From Candidatus Nomurabacteria bacterium (GTDB lineage Bacteria > Patescibacteriota > Minisyncoccia > Phycocordibacterales > UBA9973), in contig CALRAE010000001.1 in assembly GCA_943350445.1 (NCBI GenBank), forward strand, positions 29,561-93,560: a stretch of DNA of 64,000 nucleotides, read 5' to 3'. The notes beneath the pieces were generated by a model. It ran no database searches and was not told the origin of the DNA. It worked only from the letters and a program-made list of their open reading frames with translations. Positions 28,133 through 51,508 of this stretch are shown in pieces. A program made the translations under genes and the position numbers. Each line of letters opens with the position of its first letter. Position 1 is the first letter of the stretch.

Positions 28133-30898
28133 ATGCAAGGATCCTTTTTTAAGGAGATGCCAAAGTTTAAGACTCCAGAAGAGGAGCTTGGTTATTTGCG
28201 TGCTCATGTCGCTAAACGCGAACAAGAATTAATCCAAATAGGTCATTTTGAAAATGCGAAAGAAAATGCAGTCCATGATGTTGTGGGAGCTTATAAAGAA
28301 ATTCCATCTGAACAAGTGGTGCATGATAGCCACATCATAAATCAAAAAGAAGCACAGGGGATAGTGTTGGCTCTAAAGCCGGAATCTCATGATAATGTGA
28401 TGGAAGAGCTTCTCGGTATTGTCATTACCAAAGGCATCAAGAATGCACTTAGAGTGGTAGAAGTCATGGGTAATCCCCACATCGATGATGATTTTCATAG
28501 ACTTTTAATTCAATATTTAAAAAATGGACAAATAATAACAGATCTAAAAGAGGGCACACCCTTACACAAATCACTCAATATGACGCTTTTTGAAATAACT
28601 CTTCCGCCACCCACAGAGCAAGCTGATAAGTCAAAAGGTTTTAAGGAATTCATTGGCGCGATGGAACAGTTTTATGCCGGCATGCAGTCTATATCTGTAG
28701 ACAAAAGAAATGAAAAAGAGATTTATTTTACCCTAGAAGTTGCTCTTTCAAATGAGAGTGATGCAGTAGTTGTCTATGCTGGAATTCCAAATAAATATAT
28801 CTCACTTTTTGAAAAACAAATTCTAGCTTTCTATCACGATGCAAAAGTTCATGAGATTACTGATGATTATAATATTTTTAATGACAATGGCGCATCTGTT
28901 GGGGCCTATGCGCATCTTGCAGAGCGTGGTGTGATGCCCATCAAGACTTATGACAATATAGAGCATGATCCAATGAATACTATACTAAATGTTTTTTCTC
29001 AACTAAAGACCAAGGGTGAGGGTGCAGCGATTCAGCTCATAGTGGCACCTGCTGGTGATAAATTTATAAATGAATTTCATTTAATATTAGACGATGTAAA
29101 AGATGGAATGTCTGTTAAACATTCAGCAGACAACTTCTATAAATTTAATAGTGCATTTCTCAAAGCTGGCAAAGAACTTCTCTTTGGTATAAGAAAAACG
29201 CCAGAAGAAAAGAAAGAAAAAAATATGAAAGGTAGACGTGCGGTAGACGAGGGTGCGGCCGAAAAAATAGGAAATAAAATAAAAAGCACTATTATGAAGG
29301 CGAATATTCGTGTTATCGCCTCTGGTGGGACAAAAGAACGCGCAGAAGCTATACTACAAGAAATAAAATCTTCTTTTAATCAATTTACTGAAGCAGCGAG
29401 TAATTCATTTATTTTTGAAGAAGCTCGCGGAAGTGATTTAAAAAAGCTTTTCCATGATTTTTCCTATCGTGCTTTTTCGGGGGATAAAGTTATGCCACTT
29501 AACTTAAAAGAGCTTGCATCTGTATTTCATTTCCCAGTTGGTATAGGTAGTCAGCCACAATTAAAAGAGGCAAAAGCTGGCATCGCGCCAGCGCCAATGG
29601 AGATGGGTCAGCAAGGAATAGTTCTGGGTATAAACAGCTATCGAGGTAAAGACACTGAGATTCATCTTGCACGTGAAGACAGGCTGAGGCATTGCTATGT
29701 TATCGGTCAGACGGGTACAGGTAAGACAAATATAATGCTGAACATGATAACTCAAGATATCAAAAATGGTGATGGGTGTTGTTATGTTGATCCACACGGT
29801 ACAGATATTCAGACTATCCTTTCTCGTATTCCAAAGGAACGCATCGATGATGTTATCTATTTTGACCCTGCTTATACGGCCCGACCGATGGGTCTCAACA
29901 TGTTGGAATTTGATCCAAAATATCCTGAACAAAAAACTTTCGTAGTAAACGAAATGATGGGAATTTTCAATAAACTTTTTGATATGAAAGTGGGTGGCGG
30001 AGCAATGTTTGAACAATATTTTAGAAATAGCGCGTTCTTGGTGATGGAAGATCCAGAATCTGGTTCTACTTTACTTGAAATCACGCGAGTGCTCGGGGAT
30101 AAAACGTTTCGTGATATGAAGCTTGCTAAATGCAAGAACCCAATCATTAAACAATTCTGGGTTTCGGCTGAGCAGACGACGGGGGATCAATCTCTCGCGA
30201 ACTTCGTGCCTTACATTTCTTCTAAATTTGACAATTTTATCAGCAACGATATCATGCGTCCGGTTGTGCTCCAGCAAAATTCTGTCTTCAATTTTCGTAA
30301 GATTATGGATGAGAAGAAAATATTACTAGTCAATCTTTCTAAGGGAAGACTTGGTGATATAAATGCGAATCTTATCGGTCTGGTGCTTGTCGGTAAAATC
30401 CAAATGGCAGCACTTTCTCGAGTTGATATGTTCGGTAAGCCGATGAATGATTTTTATCTATATATAGATGAGTTCCAAAATGTAACTACCGACTCAATAG
30501 CTTCTATATTGTCGGAAGCGAGAAAATATAGACTCTCGCTGAACATTGCCCATCAATACATCAGCCAGCTCGAAGAAAAGATAAAAAATGCAGTTTTCGG
30601 TAACGTCGGCTCAATGGCTGTTTTCCGTGTCGGCACAGAAGACGCGACTTTCTTAGAGGCAAAATTTAAACCCCAATTTACTGCCCAAGATATCACCAAG
30701 CTTGATAATTACAATGCTTATATGAGCATGCTGGTAAATGGTCAGCCGACCAAGCCTTTTAACTTAAAAACCCTTGCGCCAGAGAAGGGCAACATGGACA
30801 TCGTCGACAGCCTAAAAGAGCTTTCATATATAAAGTACGGCAGAGAAAGGGAAGAAGTAGAAGCTGAAATTATGGCGAGGTATAAGTCGATGGAGTAG
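28133..30898 (+). CDS. large soluble ATPase with TraD/TrwB/VirD4-like (type IV coupling protein) C-terminal domain and ~480-aa N-terminal region of unknown function
   Basis: Walker A CYVIGQTGTGKTN, then VDPHG, Walker B LYIDEFQN, then RKYRLSLNIAHQYISQL (TrwB-like). No TM helices predicted. Confidence 0.6.
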   Translation: MQGSFFKEMPKFKTPEEELGYLRAHVAKREQELIQIGHFENAKENAVHDVVGAYKEIPSEQVVHDSHIINQKEAQGIVLALKPESHDNVMEELLGIVITKGIKNALRVVEVMGNPHIDDDFHRLLIQYLKNGQIITDLKEGTPLHKSLNMTLFEITLPPPTEQADKSKGFKEFIGAMEQFYAGMQSISVDKRNEKEIYFTLEVALSNESDAVVVYAGIPNKYISLFEKQILAFYHDAKVHEITDDYNIFNDNGASVGAYAHLAERGVMPIKTYDNIEHDPMNTILNVFSQLKTKGEGAAIQLIVAPAGDKFINEFHLILDDVKDGMSVKHSADNFYKFNSAFLKAGKELLFGIRKTPEEKKEKNMKGRRAVDEGAAEKIGNKIKSTIMKANIRVIASGGTKERAEAILQEIKSSFNQFTEAASNSFIFEEARGSDLKKLFHDFSYRAFSGDKVMPLNLKELASVFHFPVGIGSQPQLKEAKAGIAPAPMEMGQQGIVLGINSYRGKDTEIHLAREDRLRHCYVIGQTGTGKTNIMLNMITQDIKNGDGCCYVDPHGTDIQTILSRIPKERIDDVIYFDPAYTARPMGLNMLEFDPKYPEQKTFVVNEMMGIFNKLFDMKVGGGAMFEQYFRNSAFLVMEDPESGSTLLEITRVLGDKTFRDMKLAKCKNPIIKQFWVSAEQTTGDQSLANFVPYISSKFDNFISNDIMRPVVLQQNSVFNFRKIMDEKKILLVNLSKGRLGDINANLIGLVLVGKIQMAALSRVDMFGKPMNDFYLYIDEFQNVTTDSIASILSEARKYRLSLNIAHQYISQLEEKIKNAVFGNVGSMAVFRVGTEDATFLEAKFKPQFTAQDITKLDNYNAYMSMLVNGQPTKPFNLKTLAPEKGNMDIVDSLKELSYIKYGREREEVEAEIMARYKSME

Positions 30899-30949: not shown

Positions 30950-31423
30950 ATGAATAAACCAAATCATGAAAAATCTTTAATAATATTAAAGCCAGATGCA
31001 ATACAGAGAAATTTGATAGGAGAGATAGTCGGCCGTTTTGAAAGAAAAGGTCTTAAAATCATTGGTATGAAAATGATGAGTATCGAAACAGTTCTATTGG
31101 AAGAACATTATGCGCACATAAAAGACAAGCCATTTTTCCCAGGAGTTAGGGATTTTATGAAATCTTGTCCTGTTATAGTTATGGCTTTGGAGGGCATTAA
31201 CGCAATATCAGCGATCCGTTTGATAGTTGGTCCTACCAAGGCTTGGGAAGCTACTGCTGGCACTATCCGTGGAGATTTTTCTCTATCTACTCAATCAAAC
31301 ATTGTTCATGCATCAGAATCTGTAGAAGCTGGCGAGTCTGAAGTAAAACGTTTCTTCCAGAAAGACGAAATATTTGAGTATAAGAAAATTGACACTGATT
31401 TTATATACGCAGAGCACAAATAA
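30950..31423 (+). CDS. ndk: nucleoside diphosphate kinase
   Basis: 157 aa; NIVHASES active-site His region. Confidence 0.9.
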   Translation: MNKPNHEKSLIILKPDAIQRNLIGEIVGRFERKGLKIIGMKMMSIETVLLEEHYAHIKDKPFFPGVRDFMKSCPVIVMALEGINAISAIRLIVGPTKAWEATAGTIRGDFSLSTQSNIVHASESVEAGESEVKRFFQKDEIFEYKKIDTDFIYAEHK

Positions 31424-31475
31424 TAATTTTTTCGTTCGAAAATTAATTCAGAAACAAAAGATTCTTTCTGTCTAG

Positions 31476-31503
31476 TTGCATATGTCTCTAGTCTTGCTAT
31501 AAT
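31476..31503 (+). promoter_or_regulatory. near-consensus sigma70 promoter (TTGCAT-16-TGcTATAAT, extended -10)
   Basis: TTGCAT at 31476-31481 and TATAAT at 31498-31503, preceded by TG. Confidence 0.5.
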
Positions 31504-31509
31504 TTAAGT

Positions 31510-31666
31510 AGGGTTATTTCCGGTTATTACCTAGACACTAATTTATGGGAGAGTCGATCGTATTAAACCTTGGTTTAATACGTCTCTCACCCACCTAGCT
31601 ATAAGCTATGGTAATACATCTGAAATAGTCCTAAGAAGTACCCCCGATTTTACGGGGTTTTTTCTT
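31510..31666 (+). ncRNA. candidate ~155-nt structured RNA (sRNA or cis-regulatory leader) ending in an intrinsic terminator
   Basis: Strong promoter; rod-like nested pairing (UAUUACCUAG/CUAuGGUAAUA outer, GGGAGAG/CUCUCaCCC middle, 11-bp CGUAUUAAACC/GGUUUAAUACG inner); terminator CCCCCG-auuuua-CGGGG then U6; no ORF. Confidence 0.35.
31640..31666 (+). terminator. intrinsic terminator
   Basis: CCCCCG-attttA-CGGGG stem followed by TTTTTT. Confidence 0.6.
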
Positions 31667-31700
31667 ATCAGAAAGTCATTTTGTGTGATAAAATGACATA

Positions 31701-32105
31701 ATGGGCAGACAAAAGCTGATAAAACCACTGATATACCTCATTTCCTTTATTTTTATAACGAATTTCTTAGCTAATAAGTTCTACTGGTATTCAGCTGTAT
31801 CATATTTCGACATGATCATGCATTTTCTGGGCGGATTTTGGGTTGCTCTACTTTGTGTCTATCTTTATCCCTTCAAAGAAAAATCTCCAAATGTAGTTCT
31901 TGAAGTACTTGCTTTTGTCTTACTTGTCGGGGTCGGATGGGAGATCTACGAAATGTTGGTTAATAGCGTTGCGGCCCAAAACCCTTTTGATTATTTAGAT
32001 ACAGGTTCCGATTTGTTTTTTGATTTATTTGGTGGGTCAATGGCCATTTTTTATTTTTATAAAAGAATTATGTTTGCTAAAGAAAATGGGGTACAATTAA
32101 AATAA
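31701..32105 (+). CDS. hypothetical membrane protein, possibly VanZ-like
   Basis: 134 aa, 4 TM; DYLDTGSDLFFDLFGG resembles the VanZ motif; weak. Confidence 0.3.
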   Translation: MGRQKLIKPLIYLISFIFITNFLANKFYWYSAVSYFDMIMHFLGGFWVALLCVYLYPFKEKSPNVVLEVLAFVLLVGVGWEIYEMLVNSVAAQNPFDYLDTGSDLFFDLFGGSMAIFYFYKRIMFAKENGVQLK

Positions 32106-33469
32106 TGGAAAAGACTGCAAAAATAACGTTTTGTGGAGGGACTGGTTCTGTAACAGGAGCGAATTTCCTCTTCGAAGTTGATGGTAAGAAAATTTTGGTT
32201 GATTGTGGTCTTACTCAGGGGACGAAAGTGGCGGATGATATAAACTGGGATCCTTTTCCCTATGATTCAGGACAAATAGACACCCTTTTTATCACCCATG
32301 CACATGTGGATCATTTAGGGCGTGTCCCTAAACTTATCAGTGAAGGATTTCGCGGGAAAATTTATTCTACCGAGCCTACACGCGGTCTTGCGGGTCCAAT
32401 GCTCGAAGATACTGCGGGGATATTGTCGAAAAATACGGAACTGCATTTAGATAAAATTTATTCTCCGGAGAACATTAAATTAGCGCTTTCTTTATGGCAA
32501 GGATTTAAATATCACGAAACAATAAAGATAACTCCAAACTTGGAAGTGTCTTTTTGGGATGCTGGGCATATATTGGGTTCAGCCATGGTTTTGTTTAGTT
32601 ATAATAGCAAACGTATTCTTTTTACTGGAGATTTAGGCAATAGTCCTTCGCCGATTCTTCCTGACACCGAAATTGTCCCAAATGTGGATTATTTAATAAT
32701 GGAGTCTGTTTATGGTGATAGAAATCATGAATCACGAGATGATCGTATAAAGTTTTTAGAGGAAACAATTGAAGATAATTATAAAAGGAAGGGGACGCTC
32801 ATTATACCTACTTTTTCCCTTGAACGTTCTCAGGAATTACTTTTCGAACTTAATTCCTTGGTGGAAAATAATAGAATTCCTGTGATGCCTATTTTCCTTG
32901 ATTCCCCACTCGCTATTCGTTTGACGGAAGTTTTTAAGCAATTTAAAAGTTATTTAAATGAAAATGCGCAACATGCAATGAAAAGTGATAAGTACCTTTT
33001 TGATTTTCCAGGCCTTCATAGCACCTTAAAATCAGAAGAATCAAAAATGATAGGTAATGTTACTAATCCAAAGATAGTCATTGCTGGTAGTGGAATGTCG
33101 ACTGGTGGACGTGTGGTGCATCATGAAAGGCATTACTTGCCTGATCCAAACAATACTCTTCTTTTGACAGGGTATCAGGCTGTAGGTAGTCCTGGACGTT
33201 TAATTCAAGAAGGGGTTAAAACAGTGCGTATAACGGGTGAAGATGTGATAGTTCGAGCACATATTGTGACAATTTTTGGGTATTCAGGGCATAAAGATTC
33301 CGATGGCTTAATGGCTTTTGTTGAAAATATGTCGGAAACATTAAAAAAAGTTTTTGTGGTTATGGGTGAACCTAAATCAGCAATGTTTCTAGTGCAGAAA
33401 CTTAGAGATAATTTAGGAATCAACGCATCTGCGCCAGAACAGGGGGATAGTGTAACAATTGTTTGTTAG
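32105..33469 (+). CDS. beta-CASP family MBL-fold ribonuclease (RNA-metabolising metallo-beta-lactamase)
   Basis: 454 aa; HAHVDHLG motif with downstream beta-CASP D and H motifs. Confidence 0.75.
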   Translation: MEKTAKITFCGGTGSVTGANFLFEVDGKKILVDCGLTQGTKVADDINWDPFPYDSGQIDTLFITHAHVDHLGRVPKLISEGFRGKIYSTEPTRGLAGPMLEDTAGILSKNTELHLDKIYSPENIKLALSLWQGFKYHETIKITPNLEVSFWDAGHILGSAMVLFSYNSKRILFTGDLGNSPSPILPDTEIVPNVDYLIMESVYGDRNHESRDDRIKFLEETIEDNYKRKGTLIIPTFSLERSQELLFELNSLVENNRIPVMPIFLDSPLAIRLTEVFKQFKSYLNENAQHAMKSDKYLFDFPGLHSTLKSEESKMIGNVTNPKIVIAGSGMSTGGRVVHHERHYLPDPNNTLLLTGYQAVGSPGRLIQEGVKTVRITGEDVIVRAHIVTIFGYSGHKDSDGLMAFVENMSETLKKVFVVMGEPKSAMFLVQKLRDNLGINASAPEQGDSVTIVC

Positions 33470-33472
33470 ATA

Positions 33473-34078
33473 ATGTATAATGTTATTATGGAACCTTTGT
33501 TAAATACTAAACACGGACATAATCAGATAAAGATTTGCGTTTCTGGCGCTGCTGAGACTGGTCACTGTGGGGTAGATGCTTTAGAAAAAGCAAAAGAACT
33601 CGGACGTGAAATTGCTCGCCAAGGTGCTGTGCTAGTGACTGGAGCGACGAATGGTTTCCCAATGTGGGCTGCAATCGGTGTTAAAGAAGTAGGTGGGATT
33701 TCTATTGGTATATCTCCAGCAGCTTCCGAAAAAGAACATGTTCAAGTTTACAAACTCCCTCTTGATTATATGGATTTGATTATGTATACCGGTTTTGGAT
33801 ATCCTGGAAGGGATTTACTCCTAACTCGTTGCGCTGACGCAGTCATCTGCGGTTGTGGGCGCATTGGCACTATCCACGAGTTTACTATTGCCTTTGAGGA
33901 CAATAAGCCTATCGGTATTTTTGAAGGACCATGGGAAATGGGTGATCAGCTTAAAGAAATTATTGACAAAGGACATCGTCCTAATACTAAAATTATTATA
34001 GGTAATAACCCGAAGAAAATAGTAGAAGATTTAATTGCATTAGTTAAGAAAGATAAAATAGCTGAATACAAAGTATAA
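33473..34078 (+). CDS. LOG/TIGR00725-like Rossmann-fold protein
   Basis: VLVTGATNGFPMWAAIGVKEVGGISIGISP and TGFGYPGRDLLLTRCADAVICGCGRIGTIHE resemble LOG-family motifs. Confidence 0.45.
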   Translation: MYNVIMEPLLNTKHGHNQIKICVSGAAETGHCGVDALEKAKELGREIARQGAVLVTGATNGFPMWAAIGVKEVGGISIGISPAASEKEHVQVYKLPLDYMDLIMYTGFGYPGRDLLLTRCADAVICGCGRIGTIHEFTIAFEDNKPIGIFEGPWEMGDQLKEIIDKGHRPNTKIIIGNNPKKIVEDLIALVKKDKIAEYKV

Positions 34079-35592: not shown

Positions 35593-36029
35593 TAGGTTTT
35601 TTCCGTTAAGTTTTTTTGACCTAATCAGTTCAGTTGTATAATTTCCTGTTCTGACTTGAGTTGATTAAAGGTAATTTTCTCAATATTGTTTTCGTTACCT
35701 TCTTCCAATTCTAAGGCAAGTTCGACTCGTAAGTCCCACTTGCCTTTGCGATGCACTGTGACCTCTATTGTGATTACATTTTCCACAACTAGCCTTTCTC
35801 TTTTGTTTTCGAACAGCCAACACTTGTTATCTATTATATAACTTTAAGGCAAATTGTTAATTTCCCTTGGATTTAATACTCTTATTTTTTGTGGAACTGA
35901 CGAGAATTGAACTCGTGTGCAGAAGGCTTTTGCATTGAAGTCTACATATATAGCGCGCTTTTTTGTTTAGATTAAAAAATTCTTAAACGCGCCAAATATT
36001 TTTAAATCGAGTTCCTTTGTTTTGCACTA

Positions 36030-36347
36030 TTGGCGGAACGGTCAATATGCTATCCCGATAATATTATGCCTCTACTGATATATCGGAAGTCTATAAGAGA
36101 GACACGAGCTTACGCTAAAGCGGAAACTCGAGCAAAAGCGAAGTCATTCATACCGAAGTATGGAGAGACAGCCGCTTTTACTTTGGAAGCTAATTTTGCA
36201 ATTAAGCTATTGAACGAAGTTTTACGAGATTACGTCCATTCTCGATATGCATCAAATACATACGGCCTACTGTCTATGCCTAGCAGTCCCATGTTATTAG
36301 AAAATACGGAATATAAATTTTTCCGGTACGAATTTTTTGAAGCTTAA
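36030..36347 (+). CDS. hypothetical protein
   Basis: 105 aa; no recognisable domain; stop codon lies inside repeat copy B. Confidence 0.3.
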   Translation: MAERSICYPDNIMPLLIYRKSIRETRAYAKAETRAKAKSFIPKYGETAAFTLEANFAIKLLNEVLRDYVHSRYASNTYGLLSMPSSPMLLENTEYKFFRYEFFEA

Positions 36348-39475: not shown

Positions 39476-40150
39476 ATGGCAAGAAAATTAGATAAACAAA
39501 AGGCTCTAGCTATGCGTCAAAAGGGGATGAGTTATAGCCAGATTAAAGATCATATTGGTGTAAGTAAGAGCACCTTGAGTGGGTGGCTTAAAGATTTTCC
39601 TCTTAGTGAAAAAAGAATTAGAGAGTTGAGGGACAATAGCCCAATTCGTATTGAACGCTACAGGAATACAATGCGAGCTAAAAAAGAAGCCCGCCTAAAG
39701 ATGGTTTATGAAAAAGTGTCGAAAGACATAGGTGTTTTCTCAAAACGAGAAATTTTCTTATTGGGCATGTTCTTGTACTGGGGAGAAGGCACTAAAGCTA
39801 AAAATACTTCAGTTGCTCTCACAAATACAAATCCCGCAATGGTTAAGTTCTTTATCAATTGGCTTGATTCGTTTAATGTGCAAAGGAAAAAATTAAAAGT
39901 TAAATTGTATTTATATTCCGATATGAATATTAATAAATCTATTGCTTTTTGGTCAAAAGAGCTTAGAATACCAGTAAGCCAATTTACGAAGCCATACATT
40001 AAAAAGACTAATTTGGCATCGATAACTTATAAAAATGGCTTTGGTAAGGGGACTTGTTGTGTAATGTTTGATAATCGAGATCTTTTGGAATATATAATAA
40101 TGGGTTTGAAATATATTTCTGAAGTTAGTAATAAAAATATCCACCCTTAG
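39476..40150 (+). CDS. HTH-containing protein with LAGLIDADG-like motif (possible homing-endonuclease-like)
   Basis: N-terminal HTH MSYSQIKDHIGVSKSTLSGWL; later FLLGMFLYWGEGTK resembles a single LAGLIDADG motif; last 10 nt overlap tRNA-Ile. Confidence 0.35.
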   Translation: MARKLDKQKALAMRQKGMSYSQIKDHIGVSKSTLSGWLKDFPLSEKRIRELRDNSPIRIERYRNTMRAKKEARLKMVYEKVSKDIGVFSKREIFLLGMFLYWGEGTKAKNTSVALTNTNPAMVKFFINWLDSFNVQRKKLKVKLYLYSDMNINKSIAFWSKELRIPVSQFTKPYIKKTNLASITYKNGFGKGTCCVMFDNRDLLEYIIMGLKYISEVSNKNIHP

Positions 40151-40213
40151 CTCAGTTGGTAGAGCGAGCGCCTTATACGCGCCAGGTCCCTGGTTCGAGT
40201 CCAGGAGGGTGGA
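40141..40213 (+). tRNA. tRNA-Ile, apparent anticodon UAU
   Basis: Manual fold: 7-bp acceptor (C1-G72), D-arm GCTC/AGTTGGTA/GAGC, anticodon stem with one A.C mismatch, loop CTTATAC, T-arm CCTGG/TTCGAGT/CCAGG, discriminator A; CCA not encoded. Confidence 0.65.
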
Positions 40214-42612: not shown

Positions 42613-44817
42613 TTATTCGAAGTGGAATTCCGATACTTTTTGGTGAACTTTTTGTTTGAGTAAGGGGTAGTTTATAAGTTCTGGGTCTTCTTCTATTAGT
42701 CTTATTGCTTCAGTTCGTGCGGCTTCGACCATCTTTAAATTTTTTATCGCTTCCATGCCTAGGTCTGTGATGCCCCATTGTTTAGTGCCTCCGAGTTCAC
42801 CAGCGCCTCGTAGGGCGAGGTCGAGCTCGGCAAGTTCAAAGCCATTTTTTGCAGTTTTGAGGGCTTTCAGTCGGTCCATGGTCTTCTCGCTTTTCGCTTC
42901 GGCAAAGACATAGCAATAAGCTTGATGAGTGCTTCTTATCACGCGTCCGCGGAGCTGGTGCAGCTGGGCCAAGCCGAACCTCTCGGCGCCTTCAATGACG
43001 ATGACGGTGGCGTTTGGGACATTCACACCGACTTCCACTACTGAGGTGGCGCAGAGGATGTGAATTTTTCCCTCGGTGAATTCTTGCATCACTGCTTCCT
43101 TTTTCTCCTTACTCATTTTACTATGAAGTATTCCTATCTCATATTCTTTGAACACATCTTTCTTCAACCTCTTGGCTTCTTCAGTGACTGATTTCATATT
43201 GAGTGCGAGCTCTTTCTCTGGGTCTGGTTCATTTATTCTCGGGCAGATAATGTAGAGCTGTCTACCAGATTCTAATTCTTTCCTTATTTTTTCATAAGTC
43301 TCTGTGCGCTTATTTGGTGTGATTATTTCTGTGATAATTTGTTTTCTTCCAGCTGGCATCTCGTCTAGGAGTGAGAGGTCTAAGTCTCCATATACAGTGA
43401 GTGCGAGTGTGCGGGGGATGGGAGTGGCAGTCATGGATAGTAGGTGGGGCGCGACGCCGTCTTTACGGACTAGTTTTCGTCTTTGAGCTGTACCAAAACG
43501 ATGCTGTTCATCTATAACCACGAGGGCTAAGTTTTTAAATTTAACAGCTTTTTGAATTAGGGCGTGGGTACCGATCAAAATAGGTATTTCCCCATTTGCT
43601 ACCCATTTAAGTAATTGTGTACGAGAAATATCAGTCCAGCTTGCCCCGTTTGCGGGGCCAATCGTCTTTGAGGGAAACTTCCGACACCCCGAACCGGTAA
43701 TCAGCCCAATGTTTATAGGCAAGTGGCGGAAGTATTGTATAAAAGATTCGAAATGTTGAGCCGCAAGTATTTCTGTGGGTGCCATATAGGCTACTTGCAA
43801 GTTTCCAAAGTTCTGCCCGTTCGGTCGCTGTTTGACTGTCAGATAGCTTGCCGTAGCTGCTACGGCTGTTTTACCACTTCCGACGTCGCCTTCGAGCAGG
43901 CGAGACATAGGGACGTTCTTTCCGATATCATTTAATATGGTTTCAATGGAATTTTTTTGTGAATTTGTTGGTTCAAAAGGGAAGCGTTTCAGGAAATCTT
44001 GCACACTCACATCGTCTTTCTTAATTTGGAAAGATTTATTTTTTCTGTATTCAAATTTATCATGCTGACGTTCGAGTTGGATGCAAAAGACTTCTTCAAA
44101 AGCAAATCTTTTGCGGGCAGATTCAGCATCATCTTTATCTTTTGGTTTATGTATCCATATAAGGGCAGTCTTGAGTGTCGGCAAGTTATACTTTTTTAAA
44201 ATATCGGCTGGCACATAATCCTCTAGATTATCTAATGTTTTTTCCCTAAGTATTTTTTCTATTGCATGATAAAACCACTTGGAAGTTATGCCTCGAGTTT
44301 CAGCATAAATAGGGTAAGAAAATCCTTCGTTTTTTATCTCCCCCTGCAAAGGGGGAGTGCCTGCAACGCGAGGGGGTCTGAAGAGCGTATTGTGTGAATC
44401 TATGGGCATATCGAGCATCTTTTCAAATTCTGGATTTGCTAGGTAAGTGCCACTTTTACTTTCTGTCACTTTGCCGGTTAATTTTACAGTGTCACCTTCG
44501 TGGATCATCTTGGCTAGATAGGCTTGGTTAAACCAAATAATTTTAATTTTACCCGATAAGTCTTCTATTGTCCCCTCAGCCATGGGTATTTTTGAGTGGA
44601 ACCCTTTTTTAGTTCTCAGGTTTGAAACCTTACCATAGACCGTCGCCACATCTCCAGCAGTTAATTCTGTGATTCTTTTTACTTCACTTATGTCGCTATA
44701 ACGAACAGGGAAGTCGAAAATCAGGTCAGCCACGGAGAAAAGTTTGAGCTTATGTAGTGCCTTTTTCTGATTTACATCCAGCCTGAATTTTGTTTCTAGT
44801 TTATCATGAAGTTCCAT
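42613..44817 (-). CDS. recG: ATP-dependent DNA helicase RecG
   Basis: 734 aa; wedge/OB region, GDVGSGKT, DEQHRFG, QLRGRVIR motifs. Confidence 0.9.
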   Translation of the reverse strand: MELHDKLETKFRLDVNQKKALHKLKLFSVADLIFDFPVRYSDISEVKRITELTAGDVATVYGKVSNLRTKKGFHSKIPMAEGTIEDLSGKIKIIWFNQAYLAKMIHEGDTVKLTGKVTESKSGTYLANPEFEKMLDMPIDSHNTLFRPPRVAGTPPLQGEIKNEGFSYPIYAETRGITSKWFYHAIEKILREKTLDNLEDYVPADILKKYNLPTLKTALIWIHKPKDKDDAESARKRFAFEEVFCIQLERQHDKFEYRKNKSFQIKKDDVSVQDFLKRFPFEPTNSQKNSIETILNDIGKNVPMSRLLEGDVGSGKTAVAATASYLTVKQRPNGQNFGNLQVAYMAPTEILAAQHFESFIQYFRHLPINIGLITGSGCRKFPSKTIGPANGASWTDISRTQLLKWVANGEIPILIGTHALIQKAVKFKNLALVVIDEQHRFGTAQRRKLVRKDGVAPHLLSMTATPIPRTLALTVYGDLDLSLLDEMPAGRKQIITEIITPNKRTETYEKIRKELESGRQLYIICPRINEPDPEKELALNMKSVTEEAKRLKKDVFKEYEIGILHSKMSKEKKEAVMQEFTEGKIHILCATSVVEVGVNVPNATVIVIEGAERFGLAQLHQLRGRVIRSTHQAYCYVFAEAKSEKTMDRLKALKTAKNGFELAELDLALRGAGELGGTKQWGITDLGMEAIKNLKMVEAARTEAIRLIEEDPELINYPLLKQKVHQKVSEFHFE

Positions 44818-45942: not shown

Positions 45943-46030
45943 TGGCGGAGCCGGTGAGATTCGAACTCACGGTCCAATAAAGGACGGCGGTTTAGTAAAC
46001 CGCTGATTTAAACCACTCATCCACGGCTCC
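45943..46030 (-). tRNA. type II (long variable arm) tRNA, Ser-like identity, apparent anticodon ACU
   Basis: Manual fold: acceptor GGAGCCG/CGGCTCC, G73, encoded CCA, perfect anticodon stem GCGGT/ACCGC, loop TTACTAA, variable hairpin GTCC-TTTATT-GGAC, T-arm GTGAG/TTCGAAT/CTCAC. Confidence 0.55.
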
Positions 46031-46125: not shown

Positions 46126-46217
46126 GGAGCCGTGTCAGAGTGGTCTAACGTACCTCTTTGCTAAAGAGGCAGGGGCTTCAAAACCCCTCGGCGGTTCGAA
46201 TCCGCCCGGCTCCGCCA
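46126..46217 (+). tRNA. tRNA-Ser (anticodon GCU)
   Basis: Acceptor GGAGCCG/CGGCTCC, G73, CCA; anticodon stem CCTCT/AGAGG, loop TTGCTAA; long variable arm GGGG-CTTCAAAA-CCCC; T-arm GGCGG/TTCGAAT/CCGCC. Confidence 0.8.
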
Positions 46218-49619: not shown

Positions 49620-50855
49620 ATGAGCTGTCTTTTTTATGTTATTATGCTATCGATGAATAAATTGGCTCTGAAAAAAAATACCTGTTCTTATTGTGGAGAA
49701 TCTCCCATAAATCACTATTTTGCATTTCTTGAAAGCGCGATTTTTTTTAATCTTGATAATCACGTAAAAAAATTTATAAAATATGTCCCATCTTTTGTGA
49801 AAGATTTTGTTGATTTAGTTCCTGAATTTTTATTTAAAACATTGGTTTTTGTAAAAATAGCCAAATTCTCCAATGATATTGATAAGGCCAACACATTTCG
49901 TTCAAGAATTATTTGGGAAGAAGCAAAAAAAAGAGATATATTGATGGAGCAAGTTATATTTTTAGGTAAACCGTTAGACCAGTATCGGGCGCTACTGAAG
50001 ATTAAAAACAAAAGTAAGTATTACTACTTTGAAAGTATTCCTATTCGGCCAGAATTTCTTGATAAACATATTTCCTGGGATGATAAGGTGGTAATGAAGC
50101 AAGAATTCAAGAAATATAAAATTCCGGTGCCTGACTATGTAGAGTTGTCTGCACTTCTATTGCCCAGTCTAAAGAAACTTGAAAAGATATTTGCTAATAT
50201 TAAAAAACCAATAATTGTTAAGCCACGGGTCGGTTCGCGTGGTCGGCACACTGTTACTCATATTAATGATTTATTGCAGTTTCGTATGGGTATCACCATC
50301 GCACGGAAGATATGTTCACAGTTGATTGTGGAAGAACATCTTTATGGAGATGTCTGTCGTGCAACTGTTATCGGGGATAAGTTGATGGGTTTTTATCGAG
50401 GTAGCTTGCCGCAAATAGTCGGTGATGGGCAAAGGACAATAAAACAATTAATTGATCAAAAAAATAAAGAAAAAATTTATAAATATCATATTCGTATGGA
50501 TGATGAACTCCATGATCATATAAAAAGATTGGGTTGGGGGATAGAAGATGTACTAACATTAGGATTAAATATTTCTCTTTCTCATAGGCGAGGTCAGTTG
50601 TTTGGTGGAGCAACATCTGAGATGATTGATGAACTTCATCCAAGCTTTATTCCAATTTTTGAAAAAGCTGCCAGGGTTATGGATGTATCGGTCGTTGGTT
50701 TTGATGCTATTATTCCGGACCCAACAAAAGACGCTAGCTCACAATCTTGGGGGATTATAGAGTGCAACACGTTACCTTTTATAGATATGCATTATTATGC
50801 TTTAGAAGGAAAGCCAAAAAATATCGCAGGAGCTATTTGGGACATGTGGAACTAG
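49620..50855 (+). CDS. ATP-grasp ligase (cyanophycin-synthetase-N-terminal/RimK-like)
   Basis: IVKPRVGSRGRHT, EEHLYGDVCRATVIGDKL, IVGDGQRTIKQLI, GIIECNTLPFIDMH match ATP-grasp motifs. Confidence 0.5.
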   Translation: MSCLFYVIMLSMNKLALKKNTCSYCGESPINHYFAFLESAIFFNLDNHVKKFIKYVPSFVKDFVDLVPEFLFKTLVFVKIAKFSNDIDKANTFRSRIIWEEAKKRDILMEQVIFLGKPLDQYRALLKIKNKSKYYYFESIPIRPEFLDKHISWDDKVVMKQEFKKYKIPVPDYVELSALLLPSLKKLEKIFANIKKPIIVKPRVGSRGRHTVTHINDLLQFRMGITIARKICSQLIVEEHLYGDVCRATVIGDKLMGFYRGSLPQIVGDGQRTIKQLIDQKNKEKIYKYHIRMDDELHDHIKRLGWGIEDVLTLGLNISLSHRRGQLFGGATSEMIDELHPSFIPIFEKAARVMDVSVVGFDAIIPDPTKDASSQSWGIIECNTLPFIDMHYYALEGKPKNIAGAIWDMWN

Positions 50856-51508
50856 ACCGAAGTGGTGGTGGGTTTATTTAAAAACAATTCCCATTCTTTT
50901 TTGAATAAGAATTTACAAGTTTCAAAAATTGTATAAGTAATAAAATAAGCTGCTAAAACGTCTATCGAATAGTGTATATGCCCAAGTAGCACGACTATCG
51001 CAAAAGTTATAGAAAATCCCAAGAAGATTGTTCTAATTGTTTTTTGTTTCCAAAACATTAAAGCCAAAAGAAAAGGTAATCCAGTGTGTCCAGAAAAGAA
51101 AAGATCATTGCCGGTAAAAATTCCGGTAAACAGGGGGCTATTAAAAAAAGATGATTCTATGACTATACTAGTTGGGAAGGCGCTAATGTGTGTGAGGATG
51201 ACAAAGAGTGAGCGTATCAAAGTAAAAAGAGCAATGCTTTTCATAGCAAAAGGTAGACGTTTTGGTTCTGCAAATCCAATGAATAATCCTATAAACAACA
51301 ACAGCACGGATCCATACACAAAAATGCCACCTACGTCATAAACCCTTATGTTGCTGAGTATTAAATCAGTTACGGGAGTGCTGGGTAGATTGTTTACATA
51401 GCCACTTATGTAGAATTGCATAGCTAAGCTAACTATCAATAAAAGTAGTCCACCAAAAAAAGATATAAGGAAATTTTTATCAGTAAAATAAGTTTTATAT
51501 AATTGCAT
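50852..51508 (-). CDS. PAP2-superfamily-like membrane protein
   Basis: 218 aa, 5-6 TM; FSGHTG and LGHIHYSIDVL resemble PAP2_C motifs. Confidence 0.35.
   Translation of the reverse strand: MQLYKTYFTDKNFLISFFGGLLLLIVSLAMQFYISGYVNNLPSTPVTDLILSNIRVYDVGGIFVYGSVLLLFIGLFIGFAEPKRLPFAMKSIALFTLIRSLFVILTHISAFPTSIVIESSFFNSPLFTGIFTGNDLFFSGHTGLPFLLALMFWKQKTIRTIFLGFSITFAIVVLLGHIHYSIDVLAAYFITYTIFETCKFLFKKEWELFLNKPTTTSV

Follow-up and report, generated by a model that had tools for sequence, protein, structure and literature searches.

The stretch of DNA analysed here, hereafter the window, comprises 64,000 nt of a 94-kb metagenome contig of Candidatus Nomurabacteria. Gene callers left a region of it empty between the gene for nucleoside diphosphate kinase (ndk, 30950-31423, + strand) and that of a small DUF2238-like membrane protein (31701-32105, +). 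The latter is followed by genes for a beta-CASP metallo-beta-lactamase RNase (32105-33469, +) and a SLOG/LDcluster4 protein (33473-34078, +), which form a conserved gene pair (32105-34078 in the window) at all the loci compared. The precomputed Pfam list of the RNase includes Anti-Pycsar_Apyc1 (PF23023). Upstream of ndk, here and at most loci, lies the gene of a VirD4/TraG-like coupling protein of 921 residues (28133-30898, +) with DUF8128 and TraG-D_C domains, in keeping with reports of a type IV secretion-like system in Patescibacteria.

The empty region contains a conserved small-RNA gene with its own promoter and terminator. The promoter consists of a -35 element, TTGCAT (31476-31481, +), a spacer of 16 nt and an extended -10 element, TGcTATAAT (31495-31503, +), in which TG occupies 31495-31496 and a perfect TATAAT 31498-31503. 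Over 78 homologous loci the column identities are T100/T84/G84/C73% for the -35 TTGC and T94, A94, A92 and T100% for the fixed positions of the -10 TAnAnT, the spacer is 16 nt, and the distance between the promoter and the 5' end of the RNA is fixed, the near-invariant TAnAnT being followed by GUAGGG after 5–7 nt. Conservation of TTGC, spacer and TAnAnT at a fixed position in so many loci shows that the promoter is real, as the initial annotation had proposed. Its ranking there among the best promoter matches of the window was overstated as far as the -35 alone is concerned, although the promoter as such is conserved; TTGCAT is identical to TTGACA at only 3 of 6 positions, which explains why a generic promoter scan did not pick it up. 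Directly abutting the -35 box is a (c)TGTCTAG motif (31468-31475), present in about half of the loci, the most distant of all among them (CTGTCTATCTTGT), while the remaining half have a T-run/A-run there; the motif could serve as a regulator site or an UP-like element.

The predicted primary transcript is about 156 nt long (31508-31663, +), with the 5' end deduced from the -10 element and the 3' end from the U-tract, and it is without a conserved ORF, in agreement with the ORF-less transcript of about 155 nt first suggested. The intrinsic terminator (31634-31666, +) is made up of an AAGAAG tract, a CCCCG/CGGGG hairpin (31642-31657), U6 (31658-31663) and CUU; a terminator scan located the hairpin CCCCG-AUUUUA-CGGGG-U6 at 31642-31663, and the A-rich AAGAAG pairs with the U-tract and CUU. 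The end of the U-tract lies 37 nt before the ATG at 31701, confirming the terminator that had been placed some 35 nt ahead of the next start codon. The terminator stem covaries (alignment pairs 162-188 to 166-184) and so do the A- and U-tracts, with AAUAAG facing UUAUU (L016, L049), AAAAAG facing U9 (L044) and AACAAG facing UUGUU (L071). In 78 of 81 homologues the hairpin of the terminator folds as a self-contained unit, and its freely variable sequence adjoins an almost invariant RNA body.

The RNA folds with a minimum free energy (MFE) of -53.7 kcal/mol (z = -4.96), and none of 200 dinucleotide shuffles folded as well. The rod with nested helices described in the initial annotation is found as a closing stem, a central bubble and an apical stem, about 127 nt in all or about 156 nt including the 3' terminator hairpin, while the bodies of distant homologues measure 136–171 nt. 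In the closing stem, of 24–27 bp and with one internal loop, the 5' strand (31509-31534, +) pairs with the 3' strand (31606-31633, +). The upper part of its 5' strand (~31523-31534), UUAUUACCUAG, is one of the best-conserved parts of the RNA (1.75 bits per column). Next comes the 5' side of the bubble, ACACUAAUUUAU (31535-31546, +), unpaired in both the MFE and the consensus structures and 12 nt long in the window as opposed to 13 nt in most relatives. An almost invariant GA(A)C|A motif sits at 31534-31537, GAACA reaching 1.98 bits per column over 81 sequences. The GGG/CCC flanking the bubble is invariant (2.0 bits), and the apical arm has the lowest values (0.8–0.9 bits). On the 3' side of the bubble, ACCUAGCUAUAAG (31593-31605, +), the segment CCUAGCU (31594-31600) can pair with AGCUAUGG (31604-31611) into an alternative hairpin. 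A 5-bp version of this hairpin is already part of the free-state MFE structure, which is a three-way junction with highly conserved junction strands.

The apical stem-loop (31547-31592, +) has an invariant GGG/CCC base, a UCGAU/UCU internal loop that is conserved in the main family, a variable, covarying stem and a CUUG tetraloop (31569-31572). The inner hairpin CGUAUUAAACC/GGUUUAAUACG, initially described as a perfect one of 11 bp, does exist, but physically it consists of 10 bp closed by the CUUG tetraloop. In distant homologues the apical arm is swapped for longer, different ones. One distant subgroup (L075, L076, L079, and L080; ~3805-3835 in L079) has a longer arm with a conserved GCGUCAGAAUUUUUAUCGCGGCG segment, and in a second subgroup (L069 and L071) the arm holds CUGUAAACA followed by UUACGUUAACAAAU; these arms are lineage-specific modules.

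A search of the genome collection with the beta-CASP protein gave 80 loci (61–87% protein identity); the genomes, all metagenome-assembled, belong to Candidatus Nomurabacteria, Paceibacterota and Patescibacteria. With the RNA region as query, nhmmer detected homologues at about 70 of these loci, each located upstream of the beta-CASP gene (E down to 1e-51). A covariance model built from 66 sequences detected exactly one copy in 79 of the 80 loci, at 42–156 bits, scores that place the feature far beyond chance, and recovered all the distant loci missed by nhmmer (42–60 bits); the sequence of the 80th locus (L014) begins downstream of the expected RNA position. The 64-kb window contains a single copy according to the same model. 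A protein-independent pattern scan of metagenome contigs returned 10 loci, five of which are true members. The proteins listed in a further search for beta-CASP homologues were all at least 82% identical and did not extend to further lineages, and the RNA has been seen in one clade only (neighbour protein identity of at least 61%, plus the five metagenome contigs). Its nucleotide conservation surpasses that of the adjacent coding gene in all 62 main-family loci (median 84.5% vs. 75.6%).

Comparison of homologous regions for covariation, which the initial annotation had recommended, revealed a conserved structure in the relatives. In a MAFFT alignment made without reference to structure, standard pairs fill 93.3% of the pair cells, against 30–47% with slid partners (31–45% for slides of the 3' partners by 1–3 columns), and 17 pairs have changes on both sides; none of 500 shuffles reached the observed values. 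The 81-sequence alignment is model-based and leans towards the structure; 28 pairs have compensatory changes there, a count that does not represent independent events because the sequences are related. In the closing stem 25 pairs are formed, with 96% of cells paired and compensatory changes in 13 pairs, and all 15 variable pairs of the apical stem-loop have them as well (81 sequences). The structure belongs to the + strand transcript, as shown by two near-invariant G-U/U-G pairs in the closing stem and by the covariance-model match at 31506-31639, which scores 150.7 bits on the + strand and 39.5 bits on the reverse strand.

No known RNA family could be assigned, in line with the initial statement that the element does not match the TPP, FMN, SAM, purine, T-box, preQ1 or fluoride consensus motifs. 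The whole window, scanned with Rfam 15 at gathering score, gave no family at the RNA, 6S included, nor was any riboswitch aptamer class of Rfam matched. Even at E ≤ 10, queries of 381, 178, or 135 nt (the region, the isolated RNA and a distant homologue) retrieved no 6S-type match, and the sub-threshold matches were only terminator-type or nonsense (rimP leader, Phe leader, miRNAs). Since no Rfam 6S-type model scores the RNA or the distant homologue, it cannot be filed in the curated 6S family. Rfam models do work in this genome, as the tmRNA (RF00023) was detected at 35889-36290 (- strand) with 117 bits. The tag-encoding region of this tmRNA has a long insertion relative to the model. Three tRNA genes are also found in the window (40141-40213, +; 45946-46030, -; 46126-46214, +), the last two with a long variable arm, divergently oriented and about 100 nt apart.

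Several other identities were discarded. There was no Rfam model match for SRP RNA, tmRNA, RNase P RNA, 5S rRNA or ribozymes at the RNA, and by eye there is no trace of the signature motifs of SRP RNA, 5S rRNA or ribozymes. A small protein was rejected given that the internal ORF of 17 codons (AUG-GGA-GAG...) is not conserved, its AUG being UUG, UCG, UAG or AAG in relatives, and that the changes within it are compensatory for RNA pairing. The G-U pairs and the difference in score between strands (150 vs. 39 bits) rule out a DNA-level or reverse-strand element. A phage or mobile element was dismissed as well, with zero matches in viral contigs.

Regarding gene starts, almost no gene of the window has a Shine-Dalgarno (SD) sequence, and in many first genes a TATAAT-like box ends some 6 nt ahead of the ATG (e.g., 908-1861, -; 28133, +; 42613-44817, -; 50852-51508, -; 57294, +), so leaderless mRNAs appear to be widespread in these organisms. 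At seven related loci an inverted-repeat element of ~110–130 nt, ATGGATCCCGTWMGAAR ... YTTCKWACGGGATG, is located exactly at start codons, with ATG at both ends (L027 2579-2700, L053 3507-3630, L049 3880, L021 5393, L032 4536, L035 5377, and L043 5378). There is none in the window. It looks like a miniature mobile element targeting or regenerating start codons.

The RNA gene is independent of the gene downstream. The latter has a promoter of its own outside the RNA, TGaTAAAAT (31686-31694) followed after 6 nt by the ATG at 31701 (31686-31703, +, for box and ATG together). Throughout the relatives this box is an extended -10, TGnTAAAAT or TATAAT, between terminator and start codon; TAnnnT ends 4–9 nt before the downstream start codon in 56 of 73 loci, with a distance of exactly 6 nt in 41, compared with a background of 13.6% over all ATGs, and an SD-like sequence precedes the downstream gene in just one of the 73. 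A -10 box this close to the ATG makes the downstream mRNA leaderless, and a read-through transcript would carry an internal start lacking an SD. In one metagenome contig (L081), moreover, the RNA is followed by an unrelated gene for a 428-residue protein with its own TTGACA-17-TATACT-7-ATG promoter. The initial annotation had left the choice between a stand-alone sRNA and a riboswitch or attenuator leader controlling 31701-33469. A conserved promoter and terminator of its own, one copy per locus and a 6S-like architecture speak for the former, and the conserved -10 box of the next gene, the near absence of SD sequences, the self-contained terminator and the unrelated gene in L081 speak against the latter.

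We therefore regard as very improbable that the RNA is a cis-acting 5' leader, be it a riboswitch, an attenuator or a target through which the beta-CASP RNase regulates itself, acting on the membrane-protein, beta-CASP and SLOG genes through terminator read-through. Such leaders also have a conserved multi-helix junction and then an intrinsic terminator upstream of a co-oriented gene, and in 79 of the 80 genome loci the RNA is on the same strand and directly upstream of the membrane-protein gene, or of the beta-CASP gene in the ~12 loci where the former is missing. Inserted genes occupy the interval between ndk and the RNA in many loci and the interval between the RNA and the next gene in none. 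The RNA/beta-CASP linkage is, however, partly an ascertainment effect, as the loci were collected through the beta-CASP gene, and the downstream gene, leaderless and with its own promoter, is not constant. Nor is there an antiterminator fold, with body–terminator pairs in 0 of 81 MFE structures and a median of 0.01 expected cross pairs, while the closing stem corresponds to a P1 of 24–27 bp, unlike the P1 helices of riboswitches. The beta-CASP RNase J1 is known to process 6S RNAs in Bacillus subtilis (PMC10578484), a point in favour of the leader reading, in view of which the adjacency of RNA and beta-CASP gene may or may not be meaningful.

If the RNA acts in trans, it could do so by base pairing with mRNAs, the single-stranded 5' bubble UAGAACACUAAUUU being the seed. 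The strong terminator, the independence of the sRNA gene and a conserved unpaired stretch of 12–16 nt would suit this role, but we consider it improbable. Enclosed in an internal loop with a long helix on either side, the seed would have an unusual position, conservation spans strands of both helices, and the usual target site of sRNAs is missing because the genes here largely lack SD sequences and many look leaderless. The main rival explanation, which we find rather doubtful but far from negligible, is that the RNA represents a new class of structured RNAs acting in trans without any link to RNA polymerase, either an RNP component or a three-way-junction RNA binding a protein or ligand, with the invariant junction nucleotides (UAGAACA, GGG/CCC, CCCAC) as the putative binding site. 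The free-state junction with its highly conserved strands points in this direction, together with the lack of a match to known families, the resemblance of the UCGAU/UCU internal loop and CUUG loop of the main family to protein-contact sites, and a conservation of both closing-stem strands beyond what pairing alone demands. Against it, the context suggests no partner protein, since the gene upstream is variable and the one downstream is a different one in L081, and the distant homologues lose the features of the apical arm and keep the bubble and closing stem. This last pattern fits a function centred on the bubble better.

6S RNA is a rod of 160–200 nt in which two imperfect stems, the closing and the apical one, flank a central bubble. 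It binds the housekeeping RNA polymerase holoenzyme in the manner of an open promoter, and its release comes about when a short product RNA is transcribed, starting in the 5' bubble and proceeding into the downstream helix (PMC8876501, PMC8414754). In the E. coli type, release is driven by a hairpin in which the 3' bubble pairs with the 3' strand set free from that helix (PMC8876501). The comparison suggests, at a probability that we put slightly below even, that the RNA described here is a stand-alone trans-acting sRNA of Nomurabacteria/Paceibacteria-type bacteria of the candidate phyla radiation (CPR) working like 6S RNA. For polymerase binding, product-RNA synthesis and a regulatory role, all of which we infer, the model would be as follows. 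The rod, with its closing stem, 12–13-nt bubble and apical stem, would imitate an open promoter and occupy the housekeeping sigma-RNA polymerase holoenzyme until a short product RNA is copied from the bubble, whereupon the RNA would be released. The candidate start of the product RNA is C31536, the C of the invariant GAAC|A, and its predicted sequence is 5'-GUUCUAGGUAAUAA in most relatives and GUCUAGGUAAUAAC in the window, i.e., antisense 8–20-mers are predicted to start GUUCUAGG or GUUCUAGGUAAU, and GUCUAGGUAAU in the window strain. The conserved upper part of the closing-stem 5' strand would serve as the template, and the growing product RNA would open the closing stem at its upper end. The 3' strand released in this way would then pair with the CCUAGCU of the 3' bubble, a copy of closing-stem sequence.

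This last step can be followed in silico. CCUAG occurs twice in the RNA, in the closing-stem 5' strand and in the 3' bubble, and both copies are complementary to GCUAYGG of the 3' strand. When the 14-nt footprint of the product RNA is blocked, the CCUAGCU hairpin forms in all of 14 homologues examined, growing from 5 bp to 7 bp plus a bulge. Across the 81 sequences 92.9% of the cells of this hairpin are pairable, the changes being almost all wobble-compatible and on one side; as the top of the closing stem and the alternative hairpin are both nearly invariant, they are without real compensatory changes, and covariation supports neither of the competing helices.

The likeness to 6S RNA extends to the overall rod, with imperfect arms on either side of a bubble and small loops and bulges in the apical stem, and to an independent single-copy gene (per locus and per 64-kb window) under a sigma-70-type promoter. 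G-C pairs flank the bubble in both; these pairs are reportedly a conserved 6S feature, as Barrick et al. are said to have described in 2005. Once the downstream helix is opened, its 3' strand becomes available in silico for pairing with the 3' bubble, an arrangement like that of the E. coli type. In Lactobacillales 6S RNAs the product-RNA region is the best conserved part, with an adenine after the start site (PMC8414754), and here too the putative template segment is the conserved one. The product RNA of B. subtilis 6S-1 is GUUCGGUCAAAACU (PMC8876501), and the GAAC|A context of the candidate start is shared with that RNA (PMC8876501, PMC8414754), a likeness that is a 5-mer match noticed after the fact.

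The differences are also clear. The RNA goes unrecognised by any Rfam 6S model (RF00013 and related), its rod of ~127 nt (~156 nt with the terminator hairpin) is shorter than the 160–200 nt of 6S RNAs, its apical arm only just reaches the "-35" distance, and its sequence is conserved to an unusual degree. In the predicted product RNA, GG falls at positions 7/8, unlike known product RNAs with GG at 4/5 or 5/6 (PMC8414754). The size in itself is not too small, given that truncated 6S-1 variants of 78–82 nt still complete the 6S cycle in vitro (PMC8876501). We have kept our estimate for a 6S-like mode of action short of even because of the lack of an Rfam match, the short rod, the GG at 7/8, the invariance of the helices and the post hoc nature of the GAACA match. 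Another clade-restricted, 6S-like structured RNA missed by 6S models is Ms1 of Actinobacteria, which binds the RNA polymerase core and replaces or supplements canonical 6S RNA (PMC9130861). No sequence or model match exists between Ms1 and the RNA of this work.

Overall, two options are left: a CPR lineage has a divergent and minimal RNA of the 6S type, or the RNA belongs to a new class. As regards the second option, we would accept only tentatively, as a possibility falling well short of an even chance, that it is the founding member of a new trans-acting class specific to Paceibacteria-type CPR whose invariant three-way-junction core binds a protein or a small molecule. In the paper collection searched, none joined 6S RNA with "candidate phyla radiation"; among the matches listed there was no mention of 6S RNA in literature on Patescibacteria, Parcubacteria or Saccharibacteria and nothing relevant on small RNAs of Nomurabacteria. 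The CPR or Patescibacteria account for much of bacterial diversity, are for the most part uncultured and have tiny genomes with few recognisable regulators. The RNA is a concrete candidate for global transcription control in these bacteria and might play a role in switching between dormancy and host-associated growth. If it is of the 6S type, it would be among the smallest natural 6S RNAs, and current 6S models would be missing a whole lineage; if it is not, it would represent a new RNA class with 28 covarying pairs. Either way, an entry in the RNA family database is warranted and would allow the correct annotation of CPR genomes.
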